A stretch of DNA of 18,332 bases from Oculatellaceae cyanobacterium bins.114. Lineage in GTDB: Bacteria > Cyanobacteriota > Cyanobacteriia > Elainellales > Elainellaceae. The stretch lies in contig JANRJA010000043.1 of assembly GCA_033764315.1 (NCBI GenBank), positions 1-18,332 on the forward strand. Reading direction: 5' to 3'. The notes beneath the pieces are model-generated. The model was given only the letters and a program-made list of their open reading frames with translations, made no database searches and was not told the DNA's origin. Positions 1 to 18,273 of the stretch are shown piece after piece (position 1 is the first letter of the stretch; every line of letters starts with the position of its first letter). The translations under genes were made by a program, and so were the position numbers.

Positions 1-708
1 AGTCCCGTAGACCGGGATTCAGGTTTTGCGACGTGGGAGCCAACAAGTCAGCGTTGTGCTGATTGTGGCGTTTCAGGTTTCAGTCCCGTAGACCGGGATT
101 CAGGTTTTGCGACGCTTCACTAATGCAGATCCACGACTCAATGACTGAGAGTTTCAGTCCCGTAGACCGGGATTCAGGTTTTGCGACGTAAAATTACTGT
201 TTGCAGTGCGAGACGATCGGCAAGTTTCAGTCCCGTAGACCGGGATTCAGGTTTTGCGACGTCTTCTGATTGGCTGATCAGGAAGACTGTTGCTATCGTT
301 TCAGTCCCGTAGACCGGGATTCAGGTTTTGCGACCTTTTCTGGCAATGAGATTGGCTCTGAAGTTTGGGTTGTTTCAGTCCCGTAGACCGGGATTCAGGT
401 TTTGCGACTTTGATTTGCCGCGCATCAGGGCAAATATTGGGCAACTTAATGTTTCAGTCCCGTAGACCGGGATTCAGGTTTTGCGACTTTGAACCCGGTA
501 ATCAACCGCATCCAATGCCACAAGGTTTCAGTCCCGTAGACCGGGATTCAGGTTTTGCGACCGTCTTGAACTTCGACTTCGAGGGCGATCGTTTGATGTT
601 TCAGTCCCGTAGACCGGGATTCAGGTTTTGCGACACGTCTTGAACTTCGACTTCGAGGGCGATCGTTTGATGTTTCAGTCCCGTAGACCGGGATTCAGGT
701 TTTGCGAC
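1..708 (-). CRISPR. CRISPR array, 10 repeats visible (first truncated by the window edge) and 9 spacers of 36-44 nt; repeat in transcribed sense GTCGCAAAACCTGAATCCCGGTCTACGGGACTGAAAC
   Basis: Identical 37-nt repeats at 1-32 (partial), 77, 151, 224, 298, 372, 451, 525, 598 and 672. The repeat has a TCCCG/CGGGA hairpin and an ACTGAAAC 3' end typical of Cas6-processed repeats. Orientation is inferred from the GAAAC end and from the leader and cas2 lying on the right. Confidence 0.99.
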
Positions 709-927
709 AACGCAGTGTAGGAACCTTGCAATGAAAGGATTCTAGCCACCATTTTGGCAAACCTCTTGTGAGATGTCCAAATCCAACCTCTAAAAACCTA
801 ACACAGATATTGTTGCTCACCTTAACCAAGAGTTGAAAGTATTGATTTTTCAAGGTTCTGGCGGTTTTGTCAAACCCTCCAAGGATTTTGCCCTTGCTGA
901 GGTTTGCCAAAATTTGAGATGCCCTAA
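709..927 (-). promoter_or_regulatory. CRISPR leader with repeated TTTTG(G/T)CAAACC motifs
   Basis: Non-coding stretch between the cas2 stop and the first repeat. It carries a perfect 15-bp inverted repeat (751-765 / 899-913) and a third degenerate copy at 865-879. Confidence 0.85.
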
Positions 928-1226: not shown

Positions 1227-2216
1227 CTAACGCAACACCAATGGTTGATAAGGAATCCCCTCTTGTAAATGTCTTGCTAAGAGACGTGCTTGCAGCTCGA
1301 TCGCTCGACGATAAGTACAACGGTATTCAAATACCGGATGCTTAAATTCATCGCTCATTTTGCGTTCAAATGCTTGGAGAAACCCCTTTCGTCCTGAATC
1401 TGAAAGACGGTAGGCACCGAGACTTTCACTAAAGTCCTTGGGTTGGATTTCTCGGTTATTCATCACGGCTAGCACCAAATTATCAGCCACTAGTGGACGA
1501 AACTCTTCCATCAAATCCAGCACCATCGCGGGTTGACCTCGACTGACTTCATGCAAGTAGCCAACATAGGGATCTAGTCCTGCTAAATGGACAGCGGCTG
1601 TAACCTGCACCCGTAAAAGCCCATAGGCAAAACTCAATAGAGAATTGGCTGGATCAGTTGGCGGACGGCGGTTGCGTCCCTGAAACTTCCACTCGTGATC
1701 TAGCATTTTTACCCAGAAAGCAAAATATTCTCGTGCCGCCATGCCTTCCATGCCTCGTACCTGATCGATGGTGGTTTGGGTCTTTACCTGGCTCTTACGA
1801 AGCTTTAGAGGATTGTCTCGTTCGTTATGGCGATATAACACGGTGTACTGGTTATGAATTTTGGCAGTGACGATCGCCTTCACCAAGTCCAATCGCCGTT
1901 CTAAATCCTTGTAGACCTGATATTGAGCCAACCGTAGTTGCCCATTACGTGACTCACCGGGAAGTGCGGAACCCAAATACTTGCCAAAACTAGACAGATA
2001 GTGAACTGGCATTCCCAACTCTAAGGCATACATCAGTGCATCGCCTGTTACTTGAGGGTTGCCCATTAGAACAACCTGTTCAACCGTCTGAGCTGGAATC
2101 GATTGCTTTTTCCACGACCCATCTTCTTGCTTGAGGGCAACCGTGAAGGCTTCGTAGACTTTGCTTAAAACTGCATCCGGTTGAGTCACATAGAGAACTG
2201 ACATGGGGTTGCTCAC
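1227..2216 (-). CDS. cas1: CRISPR-associated integrase Cas1 (resembles cyanobacterial I-D-associated Cas1)
   Basis: RGMEGMAAREYF, RNRRPPTDPANSLLSFAY, GYLHE and LDLMEEFRP motifs. The start is either GTG 2216 (overlapping the cas4 stop) or ATG 2204. Confidence 0.98.
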   Translation of the reverse strand: MSNPMSVLYVTQPDAVLSKVYEAFTVALKQEDGSWKKQSIPAQTVEQVVLMGNPQVTGDALMYALELGMPVHYLSSFGKYLGSALPGESRNGQLRLAQYQVYKDLERRLDLVKAIVTAKIHNQYTVLYRHNERDNPLKLRKSQVKTQTTIDQVRGMEGMAAREYFAFWVKMLDHEWKFQGRNRRPPTDPANSLLSFAYGLLRVQVTAAVHLAGLDPYVGYLHEVSRGQPAMVLDLMEEFRPLVADNLVLAVMNNREIQPKDFSESLGAYRLSDSGRKGFLQAFERKMSDEFKHPVFEYRCTYRRAIELQARLLARHLQEGIPYQPLVLR

Positions 2217-2785
2217 TTGATTAATTGCTTGACTTCAAACGGCAGACAAATGCCCTGCAAACTACACGCCTGACACTTTTTGGGATAATCAATGGGTATA
2301 GGCATGGATTGATAGACAGCAAGACGGGCAGCTGCGATCGCCGCTTCGGTTGCTTGCCTTAATTCAGACGTAAACGGAACGGTTTGCCGCCTGCGGTTGG
2401 CGTGATAAAAGATCTCTCCATAGGCAAGACTGCGCCCGGTTTGTTCCTCCAGACACAGGGCGGCGGCACAGAGTTGAAAATGATCGCTCAAATGCCTCGC
2501 CATTTTGCCTTTTTTGTATTCCAAAGGAATCAATTGTCCTTCCCGTTCCTCGACCGCATCGATGACACCTGAAACCAGGAGGCGATCGCTCCACACCCAC
2601 TGTTGTTGGTGAATCAGCATGTCCTCTTCCTGAATGACACCTTCCTCGTTGATATTGCGGTGCAAATGGCGACCCATAAGGATATGCTCGTTGTCAGCCA
2701 TCTCACCCAACACGTATTCCAGGTAAAAACGGCGTGGGCAATATTCCCAGGCATTAAGGTATGCCAGGGGCAAATATTCTTCCAT
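2213..2785 (-). CDS. cas4: CRISPR-associated nuclease Cas4
   Basis: YCPRR plus C-terminal CxxCxxxxxC Fe-S cysteines, and RecB-like GVIDAVE..LEYKKG. It lies directly upstream of cas1. Confidence 0.96.
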   Translation of the reverse strand: MEEYLPLAYLNAWEYCPRRFYLEYVLGEMADNEHILMGRHLHRNINEEGVIQEEDMLIHQQQWVWSDRLLVSGVIDAVEEREGQLIPLEYKKGKMARHLSDHFQLCAAALCLEEQTGRSLAYGEIFYHANRRRQTVPFTSELRQATEAAIAAARLAVYQSMPIPIDYPKKCQACSLQGICLPFEVKQLIK

Positions 2786-2807: not shown

Positions 2808-3794
2808 CTAATTTTCTTTACCTTTTAGTCGTGTTTGTCCCATGCCCATTGTGGTTTTACGACCAACCCCCGCAAAAGAAGCAAAGTGAGCGAGAATTGT
2901 GGCGATTCTGGCTTGTTCTGGATTAGGAAAGCGATAGCGAACCCAGCCCACAGAACCAATTTCAGAACCTCCTTCCATCCGAAATGTCTTTGTTCTGAGT
3001 TCATACATTGCGACTAAACTCTGCCATTCCACTTTTGGAAAGTGCAGATGGTTGGGGGCAAATGCATTCCAGCGACGATGTAAACCGGCAAATACAAATT
3101 CGGGTAAAGGAAACGGTTGAATCTGTTGTCCTTGCTTAAAGCTAGTGGGTGAAAGAAACTCTAGCTCAATCGCTTCTTTCGGTATGGTCTGTGTCAGTTG
3201 CTCAAACTGATTCATTTGCACAATATCAATTGCTTGTCCCAATCGACAGGCAATGTTTGCCAAGAGCATTTCTTGTCCCAAACTGTGACTCAACCCTAGC
3301 AATAAGGGAGCAAGTAGCTTCTTTTGTAGAAGGCTGATCCGCAGTTTTGGGTGAGAACCCGGACTGATCGATAGGGTAAAGGGAAGCTGGCTTTGCTGAT
3401 GTAAGTGGTCTGCTAGTGCTGAATCAGCGATCGCTAACCATTGGGAAAACTGGGCGTGAATGGCTCGTCCCATTGAACGTGGTAGTGACTCTGCTGGCGT
3501 TAACGAAATTTGCAATACGTGTAAATCGTGATTGTCAACTTCAATACCAGTGAATTCGTAACAGTTACCTTGCCACGCGATCGCCACATTCCAAATTATT
3601 TGCTGACAGATTGTCTGCGTTAATGTCGAGTAGTCTTGCGCCTCAGCAACTAGCATCACTTTCGTCACACCGTTTTGCTGAACGAGTGGAATCCAAGCTT
3701 GGACTGGCTCAAACTTGGATAGCCAGTCTGCTAAACCAATGGCTTGCAGGGTTGAACTCCTCAACGGTTTCAGCACGATCGTCAAGCCAGCCAT
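2808..3794 (-). CDS. cas6: CRISPR pre-crRNA endoribonuclease Cas6
   Basis: C-terminal G-rich loop FAGVGRKTTMGMG, plus FLSPTSF and GRAIHA. Start is placed at ATG 3794, just after the cas5 stop; the ORF track starts at 3833. Confidence 0.95.
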   Translation of the reverse strand: MAGLTIVLKPLRSSTLQAIGLADWLSKFEPVQAWIPLVQQNGVTKVMLVAEAQDYSTLTQTICQQIIWNVAIAWQGNCYEFTGIEVDNHDLHVLQISLTPAESLPRSMGRAIHAQFSQWLAIADSALADHLHQQSQLPFTLSISPGSHPKLRISLLQKKLLAPLLLGLSHSLGQEMLLANIACRLGQAIDIVQMNQFEQLTQTIPKEAIELEFLSPTSFKQGQQIQPFPLPEFVFAGLHRRWNAFAPNHLHFPKVEWQSLVAMYELRTKTFRMEGGSEIGSVGWVRYRFPNPEQARIATILAHFASFAGVGRKTTMGMGQTRLKGKEN

Positions 3795-3795
3795 G

Positions 3796-4566
3796 CTAGT
3801 TAGGTTGTCGTTTGTAGAAGTCATAGCGGGCACTGGTAGCAGTAAGTTGTAGAGGCAATAACCCTGGTTTAATGATGCGATCGCTATCTACTCTGACTTT
3901 TTCATCAGAATAGGGATTGATCCGTCCAAAGGTGGCTTTCTCGCCTAAATCATCCATCGGCTGAAGTGTGAAGCTTGAATTGGCATCCACCTCAACAGTG
4001 GGTTGCGCTGTTGCTTGAGTTTGATCAGGGCAATATTGGAAAAAACAACCCCGTTTGCCAAAGTAGTTGATTTGAGAGAAGAGCGTTGTGAGTTCGGCAA
4101 TGCGCTCAGTTACGCCACAGCAAAGTGTTAGTTCGTCTGCTAAATGCACCCACTCTCGAAACACAAAGCCATCAGTCAAAGGCATTGTGGGGCGAGTCTT
4201 ATCTGCCTTATCTGCGGTCTGATCGTAGTAACGCAGCTTATAGCCGTTGCGATTTACAACTAAAGCGTTTGGCGGTAGCACGCGAATTTCCAGATCTCGA
4301 ATCCAGGCAAAGTCCTGCTTAATCCAAGCATCAAAATCTGTTGAGTGGCTGGCTCCCTGGTTTTCTAGCATCACTTTGAGCAATGCCATCTTGATCGCAT
4401 AGGGCGTTGGCACTAGGTTGGTTCGTGCTGCCATACTGGTGGCATCCGATCGCTTAAGAGAAAACAAGCTGACAGGGGAATAGACAACTGTTAGCCACTT
4501 CTGCTCTCCTCTCGCCTTTTGGGAGAGGGGTTGGGGTTGAGGGTCTTTACTCGTTGCCTTCGCCAT
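3796..4566 (-). CDS. cas5: Cas5-family Cascade subunit (I-A-like)
   Basis: N-terminal YSPVSLFSLK..TNLVPTPYAIKMAL RAMP motif and C-terminal INYFGKRGCF G-loop. It sits between cas7 and cas6. Confidence 0.82.
   Translation of the reverse strand: MAKATSKDPQPQPLSQKARGEQKWLTVVYSPVSLFSLKRSDATSMAARTNLVPTPYAIKMALLKVMLENQGASHSTDFDAWIKQDFAWIRDLEIRVLPPNALVVNRNGYKLRYYDQTADKADKTRPTMPLTDGFVFREWVHLADELTLCCGVTERIAELTTLFSQINYFGKRGCFFQYCPDQTQATAQPTVEVDANSSFTLQPMDDLGEKATFGRINPYSDEKVRVDSDRIIKPGLLPLQLTATSARYDFYKRQPN
4504..4545. repeat. Short palindromic interspersed element inside the cas5 5' coding region
   Basis: CTCCTCTC..TTTT..GGGAGAGGGGTTGGGGTTGAGGG resembles the common GGGAGAGGGG..GGGG.GAGGG dispersed repeat. 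It is translated in frame as DPQPQPLSQKARGE. Confidence 0.6.
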
Positions 4567-5521
4567 TGTTGGTCTCCCACGGCTGTGCTTGTTGAATCAA
4601 CTGCTCGATCTGGTCAGCAAACTGAGCAAAGTCGTCAAAGGGATACTCAAGAATTGTTCCTTCACCGTTGATGCGATTCAACGTCTGAGTCAAACTGCTA
4701 ATTTGCCGTTGATAGCTCTCAATCTGCAATGGACTGATCATCGGGGCAGGACAACGTTTGGTGCTGACTGTGACTACACCTTCAAAGCGATCGGGATGGG
4801 GCAAGTGCGTATTTCGCTTAGCTCCGTTGGGTTGCAGATAGGTATACAACACACTCTTAAGCAACGCATCTAATCGCTTTTTACGTTCAGCCGTATCGAT
4901 CGCGTAGTTGAAACTGTGGGGATTGTAGCCGATACGAAAGGCTTCAATATTCAGTACCGTTGCATATAAACCAGAACTGACCTGGACGTTGTAAGGGGTA
5001 GGATTATCAACCCCATATTTGGCATGAAAGTAGCTTTGAGTTTTGACAGAACCAGGAATACCAACCACAGCTCCAAATTCAATCACTGATTCACGTTTCA
5101 AGGTTTGTCCACCCTTAACCGTTACCATAAAGCCTTCTAAATCACTGATTGTGCACAGAGTTAAAACCTTATTGGTGCGACTTGTTAAATCTGCTTCCTT
5201 GTCTGTGAAAAAAGGCTTTTCCTTGGTTTCAATACTGATGTCATATCCAACTCGATCAGGATTAAACTTCTCTCCACCTTGTGAAAGGGTTAATTGTGAT
5301 TCGATCGCCACCCGATGTAAATGCTCTGCTTGAATGTGTTTCAGCATATCGCCAGAAATGCCATTTACGTACTGCGGTTCAGGATCATTCTTGTCAATGA
5401 TGTAATAGCGGCGTGTAAGAGATTGATTGCCCTCATTGCCTTCATTATTGAGTGCATGAAGTTGCCAAGACAGTAACCCAGAAATTGAAATTGAGTAAAC
5501 CGGAAATGTTTTTTGAGCCAT
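4547..5521 (-). CDS. cas7: Cas7 backbone subunit, DevR/Csa2 (type I-A-like) family
   Basis: ISISG..HALNNEG.EGN, NGISGDMLKH, SDLEGFM..KRESVIEFG and GAKRNTHLPH motifs. The ATG overlaps the HEPN stop (TAATG). Confidence 0.9.
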   Translation of the reverse strand: MAQKTFPVYSISISGLLSWQLHALNNEGNEGNQSLTRRYYIIDKNDPEPQYVNGISGDMLKHIQAEHLHRVAIESQLTLSQGGEKFNPDRVGYDISIETKEKPFFTDKEADLTSRTNKVLTLCTISDLEGFMVTVKGGQTLKRESVIEFGAVVGIPGSVKTQSYFHAKYGVDNPTPYNVQVSSGLYATVLNIEAFRIGYNPHSFNYAIDTAERKKRLDALLKSVLYTYLQPNGAKRNTHLPHPDRFEGVVTVSTKRCPAPMISPLQIESYQRQISSLTQTLNRINGEGTILEYPFDDFAQFADQIEQLIQQAQPWETNNGEGNE

Positions 5522-5862
5522 TATTCATTTTCTCCTTGTTGTACAAAAGCTTGGACCCTTGATTTGAGATCGGGTAAATCGTGCTCAACAATGCGCCAGA
5601 CAATTTCCAGATCCACCCTGAAATATTCGTGAACCAGGATATTGCGGAATTCCACAACCGCAGCCCAAGGAATCTCAGGATGCTGGTCAGTGAATACTTT
5701 GGATAACTTGCTGGATGCCTCACCAATGATTTGCAGATGATGCACAATCCAGATTTGAACCAGTTCATCTTGATTGAACCTGTCTCGCCCCGGAGTGGCA
5801 TACCGTTCAACCTGAGCAATTGCCTCCAAAATATCCTGCAATCGTTCTTTGTCACTTCTCAA
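5521..5862 (-). CDS. hepT: HEPN (HepT/DUF86-like) RNase toxin
   Basis: Rx4H catalytic motif RNILVH followed by EY, plus IIGEA and PEIPW. The TTG start overlaps the MNT stop (TTGA). Confidence 0.92.
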   Translation of the reverse strand: MRSDKERLQDILEAIAQVERYATPGRDRFNQDELVQIWIVHHLQIIGEASSKLSKVFTDQHPEIPWAAVVEFRNILVHEYFRVDLEIVWRIVEHDLPDLKSRVQAFVQQGENE

Positions 5863-6170
5863 AGTGGGATTGCCTCCTTCAAGACCTGCTCTCGAATGCG
5901 GTCTTTTAAAGCTGGTTCTGTGGCAATGTCCACTTTACGCCCCAACAATTGCTCTAGCTCTAACTTCAAGCCTGCTGGAAACCAGGGAGTGATGCGATCG
6001 AGGGAATAATCCACTAGCAAATCAATATCGCTTTGCTCATCTGCTTCCCCCCGCGCTACGGACCCAAATACTCGTAGGTTATAGGCTCCATGTTTGGCGG
6101 CGATCGTAAGAATCGCTTCGCGTTGGCTACCTAGTAAATCATCCATGTCATTACAAGATGGGTGTTTCAT
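5859..6170 (-). CDS. mntA: Minimal nucleotidyltransferase (MNT) antitoxin
   Basis: FGSVARGEADEQSDIDLL (GSx10DxD) and LEQLLGRKVDI. Start is set at ATG 6170 (103 aa), 10 nt after the cas8 stop. Confidence 0.92.
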   Translation of the reverse strand: MKHPSCNDMDDLLGSQREAILTIAAKHGAYNLRVFGSVARGEADEQSDIDLLVDYSLDRITPWFPAGLKLELEQLLGRKVDIATEPALKDRIREQVLKEAIPL

Positions 6171-6180
6171 TGAGTTTCCC

Positions 6181-6672
6181 TTATGCGCTCTCATCTGTGT
6201 TATCGTCATCGCCGGACGGTGCGCCATCGGGTTCTCCTTCTAATGGCTTTTTCCATTTCGCATAGCCATAAGCTAGCAGCAGGTTCGCCACAAGACTCCA
6301 TTTGAAAGGCTGTCCGTCATCTAGCAGCACTAAAAACTGTTCTAAATCTTCGTTCGTCACCCATACTCTTCTAAGCGATTTATTATCTTTCAAAAGTTGT
6401 TCAGAGATTCGCATATTCTCATTGTCATAACTAGTGAGAAAGGCTGATAGCTCAGCAATAAAATCTTGCTTAGAACCCAACTGATTACTTAAGCGTTGTG
6501 CCAATCCATAAGTACGCTGCCAATCAAGTTCTATAGTGCCTTCTCTGGTTTTGATTTTCCCAGCATAGACTGTGGCGCTGTTGATGGCTCTAGCGATTCT
6601 GAGAAAACCCTTATTCTGGGTAATATCCTTGATCGACCATTTTTGGTCAGCTTTGTCGAAACTTCGAGTCAT
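6181..6672 (-). CDS. Probable internally translated Cas11 small subunit (163 aa, MTRSFDKADQ...)
   Basis: In-frame ATG (codon 454 of the large subunit) preceded by AAGAAGGA with 9-nt spacing. Internal Cas11 translation is established for I-B, I-C and I-D systems. Confidence 0.62.
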   Translation of the reverse strand: MTRSFDKADQKWSIKDITQNKGFLRIARAINSATVYAGKIKTREGTIELDWQRTYGLAQRLSNQLGSKQDFIAELSAFLTSYDNENMRISEQLLKDNKSLRRVWVTNEDLEQFLVLLDDGQPFKWSLVANLLLAYGYAKWKKPLEGEPDGAPSGDDDNTDESA

Positions 6673-8031
6673 GATGTCTAATCCTTCTTGAGAAAATCGT
6701 TTCGGTGCATATTTTGCTTTTGGATCTGCCAATTGCCTCACGATGTAATCGGCATAGCTGATGTTGAATCGAAAAAACTGATTGAGGTCATTGCCTGTAA
6801 TAAAGTCTCGATAAGAGTTCAGAAGTTCTCCATTGCCTTCATCGATCGAGAGCGATCGCACCACTGCCAAATGCTCATCTAAAAGACTTTGGTAGTTTTT
6901 CACCTCTTCAGCCGTTTCTGGTCGAATCCAGTCGGGTAAACCGAGACTAAAAACTTCTTTAACACCGTAAACTTGCCCCTTAGACCCGAAATGAGTGCCG
7001 CTAAATCCAGACACCATTTCTTTAATCGAAGGGCTACGCGATCGTTGTTTAATCGGTTTGCCAATCTCTTTAGCAGGATGATGTTTTAGGAGTTCTTTAG
7101 AAAGCCCGATCGACATTTCTGCGTCAAATCTGGCAACTCCGTGTGCGCCGCTCGGCGGGCTAAATTTCCTGACTTCATCTAAAACCTCCCGATAGCTGGA
7201 AAGGCTCAAGTCCTTTGGCTCTAATAACACCATGCGCCAATCGAAAGTATTGTCAGAAACTTTGATGCGTTCAGCAATACCAAACTCAAATAAACCTACG
7301 GCGATCAACCATAGCAATAGCCATTCTTCCTTTTGCCCGCTGCCGTCAACCTTATTGGTATCTGCTTTCAGACGATTTACGCCTTGAACAGAGGTTGGGA
7401 AAAAAATTTTGACTGCACTAGCTGGAGCCGGAAGACTTGTACCCGTAAAGGCTTTGAAGGATGCCGTAGCCTGAGCAATTTCATCACCCTGCGATCGTTT
7501 GTTGATTTCAGCAAAGGCTTTAAAGACTGATGCCACCAATGCTCCAAAATGTTGCTGAATATCCCAGCCTGCTTTCCAGAGGGCATTATGGTTGCGATCG
7601 TGCCGCATCGAAGTGAGAATTACCCCATTTTGAGTCCGCGCATCCGGTTCGGTTGGCTTATCTTCGTCAGCTAATTCCAACTTCTCCCGTTTAGACTGAC
7701 GCTGAAACTCTCGATAGCGATTGCGCGTCTCACTATTTTCTTTTGTGTTGAAGAAATCAATCTCAGACCAGTCTAAACCTGCGATTGCTTCTGTTTTGTC
7801 CCCTTTGACCGGACGTAGGAAGTCTTCATATTGGAGCGTAGAAGCAATTTCGTTAGGGTCAAGATCCTGCTTTAGCTGAATTTGATAACTTGTACCTAAG
7901 TCAGCTAATTTAATTTCTTTCACTCCATAAATCTGTAATTGGGCAATGTAAGCAAGCCGCGCCAAACCCAACATTAAGCAGATATCTGCATAGGTTCCAT
8001 ACTGTTTTGGAACCCTAAGCGCATTAACCAT
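6181..8031 (-). CDS. Putative Cas8-like Cascade large subunit with C-terminal small-subunit-like region
   Basis: 616 aa, placed first among the Cascade genes, with GGAG RBS. The N-terminus LRVPKQYGTYAD..LGLARL is Cas8-like. No N-terminal HD domain is visible, so it is not Cas10d. The call rests mainly on context. Confidence 0.72.
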   Translation of the reverse strand: MVNALRVPKQYGTYADICLMLGLARLAYIAQLQIYGVKEIKLADLGTSYQIQLKQDLDPNEIASTLQYEDFLRPVKGDKTEAIAGLDWSEIDFFNTKENSETRNRYREFQRQSKREKLELADEDKPTEPDARTQNGVILTSMRHDRNHNALWKAGWDIQQHFGALVASVFKAFAEINKRSQGDEIAQATASFKAFTGTSLPAPASAVKIFFPTSVQGVNRLKADTNKVDGSGQKEEWLLLWLIAVGLFEFGIAERIKVSDNTFDWRMVLLEPKDLSLSSYREVLDEVRKFSPPSGAHGVARFDAEMSIGLSKELLKHHPAKEIGKPIKQRSRSPSIKEMVSGFSGTHFGSKGQVYGVKEVFSLGLPDWIRPETAEEVKNYQSLLDEHLAVVRSLSIDEGNGELLNSYRDFITGNDLNQFFRFNISYADYIVRQLADPKAKYAPKRFSQEGLDIMTRSFDKADQKWSIKDITQNKGFLRIARAINSATVYAGKIKTREGTIELDWQRTYGLAQRLSNQLGSKQDFIAELSAFLTSYDNENMRISEQLLKDNKSLRRVWVTNEDLEQFLVLLDDGQPFKWSLVANLLLAYGYAKWKKPLEGEPDGAPSGDDDNTDESA

Positions 8032-8126: not shown

Positions 8127-8411
8127 TTAAGAAGCACAGTAAAAACTAACAGGGATAAACTCACCACTCCAGCGCCATAAACGGCTATTTTTTATTTCTG
8201 AGTCAGCCGTAATAATCAGCGAGCCATAGAGGGAAGATAGTTGAAGAAAACCAGATCGTCCTTTTCGAAGGATCTCTTGAGCCGTTAAATGCTTACCTAT
8301 AAGTTGTTTAATCAGCAGACGCACCTGATGCGTAGTCTGGTGTTTCGTAAGCACAAACTGCTCTGAGCTTAGATTCAGTTCTGCCTGGTGCAGTGTAGAA
8401 TAATTGGACAT
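8127..8411 (-). CDS. Hypothetical 94-aa protein directly upstream of cas8
   Basis: GAGGA RBS 7 nt before the ATG, co-oriented with the cas operon. No family recognised. Confidence 0.55.
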   Translation of the reverse strand: MSNYSTLHQAELNLSSEQFVLTKHQTTHQVRLLIKQLIGKHLTAQEILRKGRSGFLQLSSLYGSLIITADSEIKNSRLWRWSGEFIPVSFYCAS

Positions 8412-8479
8412 GGGGATTTCCTCATTAAAAAATCAATCTGAGCCTGGATTGCGAGTCCGTAAGCTTAGATATTTGCGTT

Positions 8480-8517
8480 GTAGGGTGCTTTTCGGGTATC
8501 AATCGGAAGCACCCTAC
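8480..8517. repeat. GTAG-bounded inverted repeat or hairpin (REP-like, or 5'-leader RNA structure)
   Basis: GTAGGGTGCTT (8480-8490) pairs perfectly with AAGCACCCTAC (8507-8517). Confidence 0.7.
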
Positions 8518-8544
8518 GCTTTTAAGGTAGCATAAATTTTTAGG

Positions 8545-8565
8545 GTGTATGCTAATGAATTGAAA
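8545..8565 (+). promoter_or_regulatory. Putative Cascade target (GTG PAM plus 18-nt protospacer) in a probable promoter region
   Basis: GTG|TATGCTAATGAATTGAAA matches the guide TATGCTAATGACTTGAAA (8627-8644) at 17/18. The region is AT-rich with TATGCT/TAGCAT -10-like hexamers. Confidence 0.75.
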
Positions 8566-8583
8566 AGTGATATTCTTTTCCGT

Positions 8584-8674
8584 GTGGCAGGCTTGCGTAA
8601 TAAATCCTGGTTGACGGGACTGAAACTATGCTAATGACTTGAAATTGCATTCATGGCAGTCGCTAGTCTGCCAC
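8584..8674 (+). ncRNA. crRNA-like regulatory RNA (solo degenerate repeat plus guide; CreA/CreR-like)
   Basis: 8590-8626 matches the array repeat at 21 of its last 24 nt, keeping the hairpin (one G-U) and ACTGAAAC. A guide matching a nearby site follows it, and a 14-nt imperfect stem encloses the unit. Confidence 0.82.
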
Positions 8675-8689
8675 TCATATCTTTCTCCT

Positions 8690-11425
8690 CTAATGCAGTT
8701 GTACTGATCTCCCATCACAAATCCGTAATGCCCTGACAACCAGCCAGTAAAGCTGCTGATAAGGCAAATCATCTTCCCTGATTTTCTTGCCGAGCTTAAA
8801 CTCCTCTATGTCATAAGTCCGCTCAAATTCAGGAAGATGATCAGGTATTGCCAATTTTCCTTCTAGTCGTTTGCTCAATTGCCGCCAACTCTGTTGAATT
8901 ACCTCATTTGCTTTCGGATGCAGATGAATCGTTTCGTCGGAATCATCCCACCCCTTTGCCCAGGCAGAATGATGTCGCCCTGCTGCCATTTCAACTGTGT
9001 GACAAATCAAATCCACTTGGCTCTCATGCGCCTGAAACTGGCTCTCTAAAATGGGCGCGAGAGCAGCATCTAGCAACTTGAAGGTAATAAATGCACTTTC
9101 TACTGCATGAGATGGACGGGGATTTTGGGTGGTGTAATCCTCATAAGCCTTTTTGAAACCATCATGTTCAGGATGATGATCGGTGTGTGCCAAAAGTTGA
9201 TTCGCTGGATTTGTAATTTTGAACGCAGGCTTTTCAGATAGGCTTTGATAAAGCGCATAGGCAGCCCTTTGCCATCCACCCATCGCTTCCTGCCATTTCA
9301 CTTGCAGCTTACCGAGGTCATGGGTAATGACAGCCAAAAACACCAAAAGCTCAAATAGGGCTGTTGTCTGAGCTAATGTCGCTTGCGGAAAAAATTTACG
9401 AGCAATAAATCGCCCGCCTGCAAGGCTTAGTTCGGCGCTAGAGCTAGACACTATGGCAGGGGTCGGTTTTCCGTCAATCAACAGTTCTCCGGCAAAATCT
9501 CGCTCCCAGCACGTCCACATCCGTCCTAAATGACCCAAGTAAGTATCCATCTGGTAGCTATATTCTTTACTTACCTTTGCTTTGGGCTTCTTTTTGGGTG
9601 ATTGATAACTGCCATCGATGTGAACCCCAATCTGGAGTCCTACATCACGATCGTATTCAACATATTTTGGATTTACGACTAACCGAATACTCTCAGTCAG
9701 TTCTTTCTGAGTCTTGACAGGTTGTGCTTTGGGCAAGGTGTAGCCTTCCCCCGATTTACCTTCTGGTGGTACGACTTTTTTGAATAGCCATGTTTGGTCG
9801 TGGCTATCCAGATATTCGTGCCAGATTTTGATCAGAGTCGTGCGAGGTAGTGAAAATGGCTGAAGCTGTTTCACATCAACATCATTAGACACATCAAGAT
9901 CAATCATCGTAGGGTCTTCAATCATGAATACACTGCGATTATCAACATGGCGAATCAGATTCTCAGCAACGTTACGTTTGCCTTGAAATACCGCATCATC
10001 GAAATCAATCTCAAACTGACTCTTGTTCCGCGATCGCTTCCCTGCTTGTGTCTGATCTTCCTCACCATGTACCTGATTAATCCAGTTTTCCTCAATGGCA
10101 AACCCTACAGATAAATCGGCTTTACCCAAGCTCTGATGTTCTAGCAAAGCATCCCAAGTCCCTTCACAGACTTGATTATTCTTATAAGGCATAAAACTGA
10201 TTTTTTCGGAACGACCTTCTGCTTGGGCGATCGCCTCATCATCATCTTCTGACTCTGTCAACGCTTGTCGCTCATCACCGACCCATATCTGCCGATAAAC
10301 CACTACCTGTCCTGATTCGCCCCGAAACCGAGCACAGCGTCCTGCCCGTTGCAAAAGTGCATTCATTGGGCAAAGCTGCGTATGCATCACTTCGGAGGTG
10401 ATGTTGATGCCAGCTTCAACTACTTGTGTCGAAATGAGGATTTGGCAAACAGCTTCATCTTGCTTTCTCCAACCCTCGGCAAAGATCCTTTGCAAGTCTT
10501 CTTCCTTCTTCTTTCGATCTTCCGGTAAGAAGCGTGAATGCAGTAGGGTGATCAAAACATGACCTGGTGCAATCTCACGCAAATCCTGAAAAAGGCTCTG
10601 AGACTTAGCGACAGTATTGCAGATAACGATCACTCGTTTGCGATCGTGCTTTTGAATATCCTGCAAAATCACTTCAGCTCTAAGCGGTTCTGGGCTGGGG
10701 TTAAACAGCCGTTTGCGACTCCCTTCAATTTTTGCTAAATCATCACCCTCAACATTCACTAGATGCAAGACATCTTCTGGATATCCCTTTCTTGGCGTGA
10801 CCTCTTGTTGAATTTGCTGTGCTAACTCATGAGTTAAGGTTGCAGTCATGAGCAAATAAGGTGAAATTCCTTGCACCTGTTCTAACAGCTTAAGCGTAGT
10901 GGCAAAACTGCGATCGGGATCAAGTAAATGTAATTCGTCAAATACCAGGTAAGACGCAAATACCACGCCAGCATTCACATTGGCAGAACCGCGCCCGACC
11001 GAATAGGGAATACTCAAAAAACTGCTCAGCAGTTGGTCAATCGTACAGAAAACAATATCACCCTCAAATCTTGGATCTTCCGGGTTTTCGCCTGTCTGGA
11101 GTGTAACAACCAATGGGCGTTTTGGTGGATAAATCTTTTCCCATACTGTGACGTAGTTTTTTGTACGATCGCGCAAGCTAGTTGCTAATGTCCGCAACGG
11201 CACGATGTAAATAAGCTTATTGGGAAAATCTTGAATGTTTAGCACCTTGGCAAACAGGAAAGGGGCGATCGCGGTTTCTGTTTTTCCCGATCCGGTTGGT
11301 GCTCTCAATAAAACATTTTGCTGTTTCAAAATTTTAGCGATTGTCTCACGCTGAAACTTTCGTGGATATTTCCCTTCTCCCAACAATTCTTCAAATAATT
11401 GGTCAATTTGTTCTAATTCCACCAT
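8690..11425 (-). CDS. cas3: Cas3 helicase-nuclease with C-terminal HD domain
   Basis: APTGSGKT, DELH, MTAT, LHSRF, STQVVEAGINI and QRAGRCAR helicase motifs. C-terminal THDLGK, HAVES, HHS and ICD HD-nuclease motifs. AAGGA RBS. Confidence 0.95.
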   Translation of the reverse strand: MVELEQIDQLFEELLGEGKYPRKFQRETIAKILKQQNVLLRAPTGSGKTETAIAPFLFAKVLNIQDFPNKLIYIVPLRTLATSLRDRTKNYVTVWEKIYPPKRPLVVTLQTGENPEDPRFEGDIVFCTIDQLLSSFLSIPYSVGRGSANVNAGVVFASYLVFDELHLLDPDRSFATTLKLLEQVQGISPYLLMTATLTHELAQQIQQEVTPRKGYPEDVLHLVNVEGDDLAKIEGSRKRLFNPSPEPLRAEVILQDIQKHDRKRVIVICNTVAKSQSLFQDLREIAPGHVLITLLHSRFLPEDRKKKEEDLQRIFAEGWRKQDEAVCQILISTQVVEAGINITSEVMHTQLCPMNALLQRAGRCARFRGESGQVVVYRQIWVGDERQALTESEDDDEAIAQAEGRSEKISFMPYKNNQVCEGTWDALLEHQSLGKADLSVGFAIEENWINQVHGEEDQTQAGKRSRNKSQFEIDFDDAVFQGKRNVAENLIRHVDNRSVFMIEDPTMIDLDVSNDVDVKQLQPFSLPRTTLIKIWHEYLDSHDQTWLFKKVVPPEGKSGEGYTLPKAQPVKTQKELTESIRLVVNPKYVEYDRDVGLQIGVHIDGSYQSPKKKPKAKVSKEYSYQMDTYLGHLGRMWTCWERDFAGELLIDGKPTPAIVSSSSAELSLAGGRFIARKFFPQATLAQTTALFELLVFLAVITHDLGKLQVKWQEAMGGWQRAAYALYQSLSEKPAFKITNPANQLLAHTDHHPEHDGFKKAYEDYTTQNPRPSHAVESAFITFKLLDAALAPILESQFQAHESQVDLICHTVEMAAGRHHSAWAKGWDDSDETIHLHPKANEVIQQSWRQLSKRLEGKLAIPDHLPEFERTYDIEEFKLGKKIREDDLPYQQLYWLVVRALRICDGRSVQLH

Positions 11426-12398
11426 GTTCAGATTCCTTTATATATTTCTTGCTCATGCTTTCAATTTCATCTCGAATCAGTTTCACTAATTCTGGTGGAG
11501 ATTGAGCAATTGCTCCTTTGCCATAAAAGAGAACCCAACGCTTGATTTCATTCAATCCTCTTGCGACAAAATTCAGTGTCAATGAACCACCTGAATGCTC
11601 TTCAATTTGCTGGGTGGGGTGCCAGCGTCGCTCTCGAATATAAGGTGCTGTTACAGAATCAAACCAAATTGAAATTGGCATGGGTATACCACCGACTTCA
11701 TGTTGGAAAACTAATTCAAAGTGATCCTTTGCGTCAAAGGTAGGGTCAATCTCAAATGTCTCATCTACCAAATCTAATGTTTTAATTCGATCTACCCGAA
11801 ACCAACGTACCTCTTGTCTTGAGTGGCAATAACCTGTGACGTAAGGATTATTTCGAGAGAAGTGAAGTATATATGGATCAACCATTCGCTCAGAATGAGC
11901 ATTTCGACCTGCTGTATAGTAGGCAATTTTGACTCGTTGATGCTTTTGACAAGCAACTTCTAATGTGTGCCAAATTTCTGGATCTAGGCTGAGTTCTGCT
12001 CCAGCTCGGAATAGCACCTGTTCATTAGCAAGTTGTTGCAAATCTACCCAGGATTGTTCGGGTAAACGTTCAGCTAAACGAGCAACTGCTGATTGCAGCT
12101 CTTTGGCATACGCTGATCCTGCATATGCTTCTAGCATTCTTGCGCCTAACGTTAGAGCAAATAACTCTCCCTTACTTAAGGAAATACTTGGTAATCGCCA
12201 CTCAGGATCAGAGTAGTAATAGCCTTTTGTCTTGCTCCACACGATTGGGGCATTGAATCGATCGCGCAGAAAAGTAAGGTCATTGTGAATTGTTCGTTCA
12301 CGCACCTCAACGGCTTCAGCTATGCTTCGTGCTGTTTGTCGTTGTCCAGAACGTAATAAGGTGTCAATTTGAAGAAGACGTTCTAAATGTCGAGACAT
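11403..12398 (-). CDS. HTH-WYL-WCX transcriptional regulator
   Basis: N-terminal wHTH (ARSIAEAVEVRERTIHNDL), WYL-like ERMVDPY..PYVTGYCHSRQEVRWFRVDRI, and C-terminal RWVLFYG..SPPEL. Start is set at ATG 12398. It overlaps the cas3 start. Confidence 0.92.
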   Translation of the reverse strand: MSRHLERLLQIDTLLRSGQRQTARSIAEAVEVRERTIHNDLTFLRDRFNAPIVWSKTKGYYYSDPEWRLPSISLSKGELFALTLGARMLEAYAGSAYAKELQSAVARLAERLPEQSWVDLQQLANEQVLFRAGAELSLDPEIWHTLEVACQKHQRVKIAYYTAGRNAHSERMVDPYILHFSRNNPYVTGYCHSRQEVRWFRVDRIKTLDLVDETFEIDPTFDAKDHFELVFQHEVGGIPMPISIWFDSVTAPYIRERRWHPTQQIEEHSGGSLTLNFVARGLNEIKRWVLFYGKGAIAQSPPELVKLIRDEIESMSKKYIKESEHGGIRTN

Positions 12399-12433
12399 TC
12401 TACTTAAGCAATTTTGTCCCAATCCTAACCGTA

Positions 12434-15516: not shown

Positions 15517-18273
15517 ATGAGTATGGATGAGCAGCGGGTACAGGCTTATGATGAACCACGGAATCAGGCGTATCGTTCTTTGATTGAGCAATTGATGTGG
15601 TGTGAGGAGGGAGAAGCAACGGCTGTTTTACAGCAACAGGCTGTGTGGGTTGATGCAGGATTGCTGGAAGAGATCGCACTGGAAGTAGAGAGGTTAAAGT
15701 GCCGAGGGAAGGGTAAAGCTGCACAAAGGTTACAACAGATCCGGGGGATTGTAGCTGATTGGGTTGCTGAGCATTCAGATGGGGGAGTAACTGAACCATC
15801 TGAGGCAGAGATGATCACAAATTTGTTGGGTGAAGGAGTTACACAATTACCACAGGTGACCGAAATAGACACAGCAACATCGGTAGGGACAGAAGCGGCA
15901 GGGCGTTTTTTGTTGGAGACGTTGCAGTTAGTGGCAGGTAGTAAAGGCAATCCACAGCAAGTCTACCCAGTGTGGGCGCAGCAGCAAGCTCAGTTTAATG
16001 CTGACCTGCTGGCAGTTTTGCCTCCAGTAGTAATGCAATTGTTAGGGAATGCGCCACGAGAACAGCAAAGAGTAATCGCAGCCATTTTAGTAGATTTTGG
16101 CAATTTGATTCAACAGTTTCCTTTGGGGACTCGCTGGATCAATATGGAGCTGGGTATTGCCGCTTACAGCCAAGCGTTGACAGTGAGGACACAGACGGAG
16201 ATGCCACTGGAGTGGGCAGACACGATGAATAATCTGGCGCTTGCCTACTCTAACCGCATCCGAAAGGATCAGGCAGCGAACCTGAAACAGACAGTTGACT
16301 ACCAGCAGAAACCTTTGACAGATGGAAGTCAACAGGCGCTAGAGATCTCGTTCACATTTTTAGGAGATGCTTTAAAGCAAATAGGGACTGCATTGAGCAA
16401 TGGAGATGTAAAGCAAGGTTATTCCTTCTTAGAGAAACATCAACACCAATTGAATGCAACACTATTGCAAGTAATACCCATTTTTGGATCTACATATCTC
16501 AATAGAGACACAAGTTCAGATTTAGTTTTTGCATTATCATCTTTCGGCGCGCTTGGTAGCATCATAATCGCTGATGATTCTTCTTTAGGGCGGCGTAAGA
16601 TAAGTTTGGAAATAGCCATCAGTGTTTTCCAATCAATTTTGCAAGCTTTTAGCCAAAAGTCATTATCAGCTCTGTGGACAGTATCTCAATTTTGTTCTGC
16701 GTATAACATCGAACAGCTTATTCCAACAATATGGGCAGCAACACAAAATGATTTGGCAGGAGCTTACACGAACCGCATTCTAGGTGACCGTGCCGATAAT
16801 ATCGAACAGGCAATTAAGTCCTTCAAGCTAGCGTTGCAGGTATTTACCCATAAGAAATTTCCAGAAGAATGGGCAACAACGCAAAATGGTTTGGCAGGAG
16901 CTTATCTTGAGCGCATAAAAGGGGACGGTGTTGATAATATCGAGCAAGTGATTAGGATCAGCAATTTAATCTTGCAGATAATGACTCAAAAGTCATCTCC
17001 AGAGGTATGGGGAGTAACTCAAAATAACCTGGGACTAGCTTACACGAACCGCATTCTAGGTGACCGTGCCGATAATATCGAACAGGCAATTAAGTCCTTC
17101 ACACTAGCCTTGCAGATTAGAACATATGAATCATTCCCAAAAAAATGGGCAATGACACAAAATAACCTGGGAGTAGCTTACGAAAAGCGCATTTTAGGTG
17201 ACCGCGTCGATAATTTTGAACACGCCATCAAGTCCTTTAAGCTAGCGTTGCAAGTATTTACCCGTGAGGTATTCCCAGAAAGATGGGCACAGATACAGGG
17301 CAACCTGGGAAACATGTATATGGAGAATACTTTAGGCGATCGCGCGGATAGCGTAGAACAGGCTATCGAGTTCTTCAAGTTAGCGTTGCAAGTATTTACT
17401 CGTGAGGCATCTCCAGAAGAATGGGCAGGAACGATGATGAATTTGGCGCTTGCCTACTCTAACCGCATCCGAGGCGAGCGCGCTGAGAACATCAAGCAAG
17501 CCATCGTGGCTTACCGAGCTAGCCTGGAAATTTTTGAGCCTGAGTTGTTTCCCAATGACTGTCGCAGAACCGCTCGTAGCTTAGGGAATCTTTACAGCGA
17601 GCAACACCGCTGGGGAGAGGCTGAGGCTATCTATCAAACCGCCCTGGAAGCGGCTGAACGGCTGTATCAAAGTTCCAATCTTTTAGATGGCAGGGCTGCT
17701 GAACTGGTGGAAACGGCTGACCTGCCCCGGTGTGCTGCCTATGCGTCTGCCCGGTGTGGCAAGTTTGAGAAGGCGGTTGAAACGCTGGAGCAGGGGCGGG
17801 CGCGTGGGCTGAGTGAGACGCTGGAACGTGACCGGGCTGACCTGTCCCAGCTTCAGCAGAGCCGCCCCGACCTCTTCAACCAATATCAAGACATTACGGC
17901 TCAACTCCGCAATTTGGAGAGTCAAGACCGGATGCGGATGACCTCTGAGGATCGCCATAGCCTCACTCCGGAAGCTTATCGTAATCTTGCAGTTAACCTG
18001 CGTCAGCAACTCACAATTCTTGTGCAACAGATCCGTGAAGTCCCTGGGTATGAGGGATTTTTGGATTTACCGTCGGTTGAGGATGTTTGGGATGCGGTTG
18101 GTCAGGAGCGACCGTTGGTGTATCTGGTGTCTACTCCGATGGGTAGCCTTGCTCTTATTATCGGAAGATTCTCCCTAGCCTCCCTTGAAAGGGGCAGGGC
18201 TGATCTACTGACTGTAGAAAATAGAAAATGGAGAAACTGTCCTCTCCATCTTCTCAACGATGAGTCTCATTAA
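15517..18273 (+). CDS. TPR-repeat protein of the cyanobacterial TPR-CHAT type, apparently truncated before the CHAT domain
   Basis: MDEQRVQAY N-terminus (alternative start 15523), 46-aa repeats WAxTQNNLGxAY..RI.GDRADN.EQAI, and linker LEQGRARGL..QIREVPGYEGFL..PLVYL. The sequence ends without the His/Cys CHAT motifs. Confidence 0.85.
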   Translation: MSMDEQRVQAYDEPRNQAYRSLIEQLMWCEEGEATAVLQQQAVWVDAGLLEEIALEVERLKCRGKGKAAQRLQQIRGIVADWVAEHSDGGVTEPSEAEMITNLLGEGVTQLPQVTEIDTATSVGTEAAGRFLLETLQLVAGSKGNPQQVYPVWAQQQAQFNADLLAVLPPVVMQLLGNAPREQQRVIAAILVDFGNLIQQFPLGTRWINMELGIAAYSQALTVRTQTEMPLEWADTMNNLALAYSNRIRKDQAANLKQTVDYQQKPLTDGSQQALEISFTFLGDALKQIGTALSNGDVKQGYSFLEKHQHQLNATLLQVIPIFGSTYLNRDTSSDLVFALSSFGALGSIIIADDSSLGRRKISLEIAISVFQSILQAFSQKSLSALWTVSQFCSAYNIEQLIPTIWAATQNDLAGAYTNRILGDRADNIEQAIKSFKLALQVFTHKKFPEEWATTQNGLAGAYLERIKGDGVDNIEQVIRISNLILQIMTQKSSPEVWGVTQNNLGLAYTNRILGDRADNIEQAIKSFTLALQIRTYESFPKKWAMTQNNLGVAYEKRILGDRVDNFEHAIKSFKLALQVFTREVFPERWAQIQGNLGNMYMENTLGDRADSVEQAIEFFKLALQVFTREASPEEWAGTMMNLALAYSNRIRGERAENIKQAIVAYRASLEIFEPELFPNDCRRTARSLGNLYSEQHRWGEAEAIYQTALEAAERLYQSSNLLDGRAAELVETADLPRCAAYASARCGKFEKAVETLEQGRARGLSETLERDRADLSQLQQSRPDLFNQYQDITAQLRNLESQDRMRMTSEDRHSLTPEAYRNLAVNLRQQLTILVQQIREVPGYEGFLDLPSVEDVWDAVGQERPLVYLVSTPMGSLALIIGRFSLASLERGRADLLTVENRKWRNCPLHLLNDESH
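16761..17101 (+). repeat. Exact 65-nt direct repeat within the TPR array
   Basis: 16761-16825 is identical to 17037-17101. The offset is 276 nt, or two 138-nt units. Confidence 0.9.

Follow-up and report, generated by a model that had tools for sequence, protein, structure and literature searches.

A solo CRISPR pseudo-repeat between cas3 and orf94 of a cyanobacterial I-A-like/I-D hybrid locus probably encodes a crRNA-like RNA for self-repression

The window, that is the whole stretch of DNA analysed, is a complete contig of 18.3 kb belonging to a genome of 6.6 Mb. Every cas gene of the window is carried by the minus strand, in the order WYL regulator, cas3, a gap of 278 nt, orf94, the Cas8a-like gene, an MNT gene with a 136-aa ORF, cas7, the Cas5a-like gene, the Cas6d-like gene, cas4, cas1d and the array. 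The preliminary description of this DNA had given the same gene order, but its HEPN label was abandoned, as the 136-aa ORF (5445-5855) returned zero family matches in Pfam, NCBIfam and PADLOC. The array and the genes are listed below.

1..710, minus strand: CRISPR array with a 37-nt repeat, reading GTCGCAAAACCTGAATCCCGGTCTACGGGACTGAAAC on the minus strand; 9 full repeats and 1 partial, spacers of 36-42 nt
1227..2216, minus strand: cas1 of the type I-D family (Cas1d; TIGR04093 cas1_CYANO, 416.9 bits, cut-off 385)
2213..2785, minus strand: cas4 (PF01930, 2e-21)
2808..3833, minus strand: cas6, Cas6d-like (PF10040; PADLOC Cas6d, 2.5e-81)
3796..4566, minus strand: cas5, Cas5a-like (PADLOC Cas5a, 3.8e-67)
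4547..5521, minus strand: cas7, DevR/Csa2 family (PF01905, 3.5e-53; TIGR01875)
5445..6227, minus strand: inserted gene pair, MNT nucleotidyltransferase at 5859-6227 (PF01909, MntA-like) and the 136-aa ORF
6181..8031, minus strand: large subunit, Cas8a-like (PADLOC Cas8a, 4.3e-31; no match in Pfam or NCBIfam)
8127..8411, minus strand: orf94, encoding a small protein whose cas-linked family is uncharacterised; downstream of the target site, it is the first gene
8690..11425, minus strand: cas3, with an N-terminal helicase (TIGR01587, 177 bits) and a weak C-terminal HD domain (cas3_HD, 30.3 bits, below the cut-off of 43.45)
11403..12422, minus strand: HTH-WYL-WCX regulator

The array extends past the contig start, and two of its adjacent spacers (562-597 and 635-671) are identical in sequence, which corresponds to a duplicated spacer-repeat unit. 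The MNT gene and the 136-aa ORF sit between cas8 and cas7, inside the effector operon; a comparable ORF pair was observed at 5709-6502 of the related locus L010 and is absent from the Nostoc plasmid locus. The cas3 gene is a single 911-aa gene in the window; in five plasmid loci (L059-L063) the annotation splits it into a DEAD/DEAH helicase gene of ~200 aa and then a Cas3' gene. A gap of 95 nt holding a hairpin separates orf94 from cas8. The Rfam search of the window matched no family.

The preliminary description had referred to the PAM of I-D-type systems; an I-D effector did not withstand the analysis of the subunits. In the test for type I-D, neither a Cas10d large subunit nor a Csc2/Csc1 backbone was recognised, and Cas8a-, Cas7 (Csa2/DevR)- and Cas5a-like proteins were found instead with the PADLOC models; in the true I-D loci L041 and L045, analysed for contrast, Cas10d was matched with E values from 1e-203 down to 0. 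As the large subunit is Cas8a-like and not Cas10d, the effector is not of type I-D. The type I-A effector genes Cas8a, Cas7 (Csa2) and Cas5a were all recognised, by PADLOC models only, Cas8 and Cas5 having remained unrecognised by Pfam and NCBIfam, and neither the type I-A small subunit Csa5/Cas11 nor separate Cas3' and Cas3'' could be recognised among the window ORFs. The traits of type I-D are Cas1d (cas1_CYANO above its cut-off), Cas6d and a repeat ending in GGGACTGAAAC. As judged from these family models, the locus is a hybrid, in which an I-A-like effector is combined with adaptation genes, a Cas6 and a repeat of the I-D kind.

In the gap between cas3 and orf94, the plus strand carries the following elements.

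8545..8547, plus strand: PAM-like trinucleotide GTG, 5' of the target
8548..8565, plus strand: protospacer-like target, 17/18 identity with the guide
8590..8626, plus strand: pseudo-repeat GGCTTGCGTAATAAATCCTGGTTGACGGGACTGAAAC, with hairpin 8605-8609/8615-8619 including a U.G pair and handle ACTGAAAC at 8619-8626
8627..8660, plus strand: pseudo-spacer; positions 1-18 complementary to the target strand, remainder conserved and matching nothing in the target

A degenerate repeat had been proposed on the strand opposite to the cas genes, and its coordinates held: compared with the array repeat in reverse complement, the pseudo-repeat agrees at 24/37 positions overall and at 21/24 positions in its 3' part. 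With at most 3 mismatches, this 24-nt 3' part occurs 10 times in the window, i.e. in the 9 array repeats and in the pseudo-repeat, for an expectation of 0.00 (200 shuffles). The word CGGGACTGAAAC is found in 10 copies in the 6.6-Mb genome, all of them on the window contig (9 in the array, 1 in the pseudo-repeat), and the reversed word, used as control, occurs 6 times in the genome. Two further Cas6 genes were observed in the window genome on contigs C129 and C222, where the repeats lack CGGGACTGAAAC; these extra Cas6 genes indicate that the same genome holds more CRISPR-Cas loci. In fold predictions, the array repeat and the pseudo-repeat share one 5-bp hairpin, whose pseudo-repeat version is TCCTG/CGGGA with one U.G pair, and the 8-nt handle ACTGAAAC is exact in the pseudo-repeat, in agreement with the stem and handle first described. 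The guide begins exactly where the handle ends. Its first 18 nt (8627-8644, TATGCTAATGACTTGAAA) match 8548-8565 at 17/18 positions with a sole mismatch at position 12, as had been noticed, for 0.01 expected chance matches; the pairing ends at position 18, and the GTG said to precede the target is read at its place. On the strength of the shuffle, genome-count and match-expectation statistics, chance is ruled out.

Related loci were collected through orf94. Its close relatives amount to 5 proteins, orf94 included, and the profile search yielded 35 clusters of 59-183 aa, mostly 90-97 aa. In genome searches, orf94 was detected in 2/401 cyanobacterial genomes with the single protein and in 3/401 with the profile, in 2/57 genomes of the window's own order, and in 17/389 genomes of the family holding G244. 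From the latter search 13 loci were examined, four weak or partial matches (L078-L081) having been dropped before counting; L073 was also discarded since its coordinates coincide with those of L059 and both are the same record. By tblastn, 7 of the 13 loci are I-A-like (cas3, gap, orf94 homologue, cas8-like gene), 4 are true type I-D loci (divergent WYL, orf94 homologue, cas3d) and 2 show the WYL gene only within the flank. A pseudo-repeat opposite to the orf94 homologue, together with a matching site, was present in 9 of these 13 loci, namely in 7/7 I-A-like and 2/6 I-D-context loci, and was absent from L043, L074, L075 and L077 and also from L041. L059 is a complete I-A-like locus; it lies on a Nostoc sp. 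UHCC 0302 plasmid whose annotation lists the orf94 homologue as hypothetical. A metagenome scan with the orf94 alignment and a viral-contig scan for orf94 found nothing, and neither did a metagenome scan with the pseudo-repeat pattern.

Eleven loci were compared: the window, L009, L059, L067-L072 and the type I-D loci L076 and L046. The module, i.e. pseudo-repeat, guide and nearby GTN-flanked match, is thus found in the window and in 10 further loci, among which the Cas8 proteins are only ~50% identical. Loss of the guide-target match in related loci had been named beforehand as a result that would speak against the proposal; the match was kept in all 11 loci, with GTN throughout and with covariation of guide and target. 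Each of the 15 positions lying outside the sixth positions shows at least 2 matched guide/target letter pairs in the 11 loci. The expected tolerance at sixth positions was also borne out, as positions 6 and 12 account for 14 of the 19 mismatches found over positions 1-17, a pattern expected for a Cas7-backbone effector. In L059, L071 and L072, the mismatches are located exactly at 6, 12 and 18 and the other 15 positions all pair; computed over three independent lineages, the hypergeometric P of such a placement is 1.7e-4, or 9e-4 without position 18. The runner-up target sites score 9-11/15 only, and this puts the choice of target beyond doubt. In all 11 loci, the last handle base is also the first base of the second copy of the match, and the target of the window group is inverted in orientation with respect to the Nostocales loci.

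Several of these loci are informative individually. L009 (Coleofasciculus MAG, Cas8 87% identical) has the same module with a GTA PAM; its guide and target both diverge from those of the window at positions 6, 8, 10 and 12, with the same new letter in both at 6 and 10 and a mismatch at seed position 8. The search for sequencing runs containing the stretch returned DNA runs and contigs with small shares, and no RNA run. For metagenomic contigs the comparison was restricted to X1, which is ~93% identical to the window and whose guide differs only at positions 6 and 12 and target at 6, 12 and 17; X2 was left out, its differences being partly listed, and X3 and X4 lie outside the element. In L010 (Synechococcales MAG, Cas8 83% identical), both orf94 and the pseudo-repeat are missing and cas3 and cas8 are 60 nt apart, an empty site indicating that the module behaves as a cassette. 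In the type I-D locus L046 (G244), two tandem targets 29 nt apart were found at 8447-8496, one matching at 18/21 with GTG and the other at 19/21 with GTA, and 0/300 shuffled guides reached 19/21. One of these targets lies over the upstream region of the guide gene and the other beside the orf94 promoter.

According to passages of PMC10212523, type I-D systems use a GTN PAM and a 5' handle of 8 nt, and every sixth base is flipped out. A GTN trinucleotide adjoins the target in 11/11 loci (GTA in 10, GTG in the window), and these targets, taken with the I-D-type adaptation genes, predict a GTN PAM for the Cas8a-like effector. No protospacer of the window array spacers was found in phages or plasmids and none was found for the G278 array; against the window's own genome, the array spacers gave only sub-threshold matches of 20 nt.

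A second pseudo-repeat was not recognised, since 8659-8695 agrees with the repeat at 14/37 positions by eye and this match is not kept in L009. At its place, a covarying long-range helix of 12-14 bp joins the 5' leader to the 3' end of the RNA.

8584..8597, plus strand: 5' arm of the clamp helix, pairing with 8661-8674
8661..8674, plus strand: 3' arm of the clamp helix, starting at pseudo-spacer position 35, the start of the next repeat in an array

Across the 9 I-A-like loci, the start of the 3' arm falls at guide position 30-35, the place at which a following repeat would be expected to start. In the alignment of these 9 sequences, 97.9% of the cells pair, against 36-48% for slid controls, and compensatory changes affect 8 pairs, of which 7 belong to the clamp; 0/500 shuffles reach these values. 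The clamp contains 11 G.U cells and the pseudo-repeat hairpin an invariant U.G, which favours the guide strand as an RNA. In the I-D loci, the score was reached by 72/200 (L076) and 108/200 (L046) helix shuffles and is not significant, so a firm claim for the clamp is confined to the 9 I-A-like loci; a perfect 8-bp helix does occur in the L046 fold of minimum energy. The hairpin of the pseudo-repeat bears an insertion of 15-25 nt (alignment columns 53-75) in most Nostocales copies (L059, L067, L068, L070-L072); it resembles a duplicated half-hairpin, and the outer TCCTG/CGGGA pairs are invariant. A mobile element of the MITE type was considered for the inverted arms and rejected, as the genome contains a single copy of the intergenic region and the 11 G.U pairs favour RNA.

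The position of the target relative to promoters was analysed for orf94 and for the guide gene.

8438..8518, minus strand: 5' leader of orf94, with two conserved hairpins at 8438-8471 and 8480-8518
8525..8530, minus strand: candidate -10 box of the orf94 promoter, TACCTT, placed by eye from homology to the Nostocales boxes
8571..8576, plus strand: putative -10 box of the guide RNA gene, TATTCT, ending 7 nt before the 5' arm

In L059 and L046, promoters with 10/12 consensus positions face the orf94 homologue, and the target overlaps their -35 box or adjoins it: the last six bases of the L059 target are the -35 box of TTGAAA-17-TACAAT, and the second target of L046 ends 5 nt before TTGACA-18-TATGCT. 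At equal distance, the Nostocales loci show a -10 box (TAGATT, TATATT or TACAAT) followed by the two-hairpin leader. The location of the target at a promoter, as claimed in the preliminary description, was thus recovered in the Nostocales loci by overlap with the -35 box; in the window, the consensus scan detected neither a minus-strand promoter nor a promoter or terminator for the guide element, and the orf94 promoter was placed there by homology only. A distance of 17 nt separates its candidate -10 box from the target, the corresponding -35 would be a poor one, and the PAM and target should occupy about -27 to -47. On the guide side, equivalent -10 candidates are TAATCT in L009, TATTCT in L059 and TATAAT in L046, so that the end of a TAnnnT box precedes the 5' arm by 4-9 nt in four lineages out of four; the target would be located at -36 to -19 of the putative start of the guide itself. 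The leader of orf94 appears structured as well. The minus-strand fold of 8470-8530 has a z of -5.1, a compensatory change is found in L009, and both hairpins also occur in the Nostocales loci. Leader hairpins of orf94-family genes were noted at 8438-8518 in the window, at about 8884-8960 in L059 and at 6169-6401 in L045, and a leader hairpin of the same kind exists in a type I-D locus without pseudo-repeat. The leader of this family may be a cis-regulatory RNA in its own right.

Taken together, these data make it likely that 8584-8674 of the plus strand encodes a crRNA-like regulatory RNA directing the locus's own Cascade to the adjacent promoter, resulting in self-repression. Such an RNA would consist of a 5' leader, the pseudo-repeat, a pseudo-spacer of ~34 nt and a 3' trailer. 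Cas6 would cut at the pseudo-repeat hairpin, leaving the usual 8-nt handle ACUGAAAC on the guide, which would be loaded by the Cascade of the locus (Cas8a-like, Cas7, Cas5). The complex should then recognise GTG at 8545-8547, guide positions 1-17 pairing with the minus strand at 8548-8565, and is proposed to stay bound without licensing Cas3 because pairing stops after ~18 nt. Bound Cascade would cover the -35 region of the promoter driving orf94 and, probably by read-through, cas8-cas7-cas5-cas6, co-transcription of orf94 and cas8 being assumed; it would also cover the -35 to -10 of the guide's own promoter. The predicted outcome is a negative feedback: a shortage or inhibition of Cascade, or its occupation by array crRNAs, would relieve the repression of orf94 and of the effector genes. 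At the level of sequence comparison, the feature is real and the mechanism well supported, and the comparative proof of a self-repression circuit is unusually clean.

The same binding mechanism could serve another purpose. As in CreTA, the guide may mainly silence orf94, which would be a toxin or an abortive-infection factor released when Cascade is lost or blocked by an anti-CRISPR, the effect on cas8-cas6 being secondary; this reading differs from cas autoregulation in its purpose only. The distribution of orf94 speaks for such a safeguard, since orf94 and the pseudo-repeat co-occur without exception in I-A-like loci: all 9 orf94-bearing loci examined at the DNA level (window, L009, L059, L067-L072) carry the pseudo-repeat, X1 being a tenth, and none of the 8 loci without orf94 does (L010, L060-L063, L014, L025, L026). 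The empty site of L010 and the cargo genes placed under type I-D mini-arrays between cas3 and the large-subunit gene, as described in sections of PMC10120712, point in the same direction. However, orf94 homologues head genuine I-D operons without pseudo-repeat in 4/6 I-D-context loci and in L041, and the absence of the guard would be odd for a toxin, though a divergent WYL regulator adjoins. Moreover, the searches assigned orf94 neither to a toxin family nor to a known fold. On balance a safeguard is possible, on the unlikely side.

The family itself returned no match in Pfam, NCBIfam and PADLOC and no usable match in the ESM Atlas, and the best Foldseek hit of the predicted fold (AF2 pLDDT 81; two models) against the PDB had an E of 0.1, i.e. 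no fold match. A winged helix was considered for orf94 from the order of secondary-structure elements in the first model and is not claimed. At three true type I-D loci, orf94-family genes were observed heading the operon beside the divergent WYL regulator (L041 7602-7901, L045 6402-6686, L046 8658-8942). From this genomic context, the family looks like an unrecognised cas-associated gene.

The remaining explanations dispense with guided binding. A decoy RNA that merely soaks up Cas6 or Cascade subunits and guides nothing, comparable to phage RNA anti-CRISPRs, is very improbable: such a role has been proposed for single repeat units in portions of PMC10120712 and PMC10651486, but a decoy has no need of a match between spacer and target, and it would not be expected to show covariation at 15 positions, a conserved GTN and mismatches at sixth positions. 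Protein operators are more doubtful still. The two 18-bp copies would then be bound by a protein such as orf94 or the WYL regulator, with the repeat-like sequence as a decaying relic, in keeping with two similar sites within a divergent promoter region, with the WYL regulator encoded by the locus and with the secondary-structure order of orf94, which resembles a winged helix in the first model. Against this, the fixed start of the second copy at the last handle base in 11/11 loci would be unexplained by operators, the relative orientation of the copies varies between lineages, direct in some and inverted in the rest, the 6-nt period of tolerated mismatches and the GTN next to the target agree with Cascade instead, and the 7-bp inverted repeat of the window (TAGCATA/TATGCTA) is lost in L009 by eye. 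Finally, a functionless or chance remnant of an old inverted array is hardly credible: stand-alone repeats are common and many thought spurious according to parts of PMC10120712, but the match statistics, the conservation at ~50% Cas8 identity and the covarying RNA structure speak against it, and the comparative data already contradict it.

The self-repression circuit belongs, by its sequence features, to the class of CreR/CreA RNAs and regulatory mini-arrays, whose mechanism is established elsewhere and which has descriptions for types I-B, I-D, I-E, I-F and V-A. CreR/CreA was shown experimentally for I-B, I-E and V-A and predicted for I-C, I-D, I-F and I-U in the available text of bioRxiv 10.1101/2023.03.10.532045, and crRNA-like RNAs with partial matches repress cas and cargo promoters (bioRxiv 10.1101/2023.03.10.532045 and PMC10120712, in part). 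Solo-repeat CreA genes are mentioned in an excerpt of PMC9458426. As in these systems, hairpin and 5' handle are preserved in a degenerate repeat located away from the array, the spacer-like part is partly complementary from the seed end, the target is in or beside an effector or cargo promoter (by homology in the window), and guide and target evolve together; the GTN next to the target would be the counterpart of their cognate PAM. Haloarcula CreA represses the creT and cas8 promoters simultaneously, according to an extract of bioRxiv 10.1101/2023.03.10.532045, which is comparable to the predicted repression of orf94 and cas8. Unlike CreR/CreA, the present element has no recognisable second pseudo-repeat and shows the covarying leader-trailer helix instead; its cargo is a conserved protein of 90-97 aa and not a small RNA toxin, and the I-A-like effector with I-D-type adaptation genes, known from sequence alone, differs from the systems shown experimentally.

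Another close parallel is with the type I-D mini-arrays treated in passages of Shmakov et al. (PMC10120712), which occupy the interval from cas3 to the large-subunit gene, run against cas3 in their transcription, have PAM-flanked targets with sixth-position tolerance, and include cargo genes and relatives with empty sites. The element described here shares the location and the orientation, the seed beside the better-conserved repeat, the target upstream of a cargo gene with its putative PAM, the sixth-position mismatches and the empty sites in relatives. Those mini-arrays have two repeats and cas10d, whereas one repeat with a clamp and a Cas8a-like subunit are found here; in the same passages, no mini-arrays are reported for bacterial subtype I-A. 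The Cas9 RNAs tracr-L and scaRNA, as far as partial accounts of them go, likewise are natural, partly matching guides that make an effector a promoter repressor, but they belong to class 2 single-protein effectors and have another RNA architecture. The six cyanobacterial genus names searched for are absent from the main texts of PMC10120712 and bioRxiv 10.1101/2023.03.10.532045, whose supplements or figures may hold these loci, and the literature search returned, by titles or abstracts, no cyanobacterial report of such elements.

Since the mechanism is established, the locus opens no new field. In its sequence organisation, it is a distinct architecture within a known class, combining a solo repeat and clamp with a hybrid effector and a fixed protein cargo. 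With it, the circuit is extended to a cyanobacterial hybrid of I-A-like and I-D components and is linked to a small protein family which also heads I-D operons and which is a candidate new cas-associated regulator or safeguard. The solo repeat with its conserved 5'-3' clamp may explain how a Cascade-competent RNA is made from one repeat. A tentative and rather doubtful extension is that the single pseudo-repeat does the work of two, as a circularly permuted two-piece crRNA, and forms with orf94 a cyanobacterial cassette. After the Cas6 cut, the leader fragment would retain the repeat hairpin, probably bound by Cas6, and the clamp would hold this fragment where the hairpin of the next repeat sits in a normal crRNA. 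If true, a cassette of guide, promoter and small protein would plug into type I-D and I-A-like systems and would make an effector or regulator of unknown kind depend on Cascade activity.

At the other end of the contig, four tandem units of 138 nt, 67-71% alike, were observed at 16730-17419 within a 918-aa ORF (15517-18273), which suggests a repeat protein having no relation to the guide RNA.
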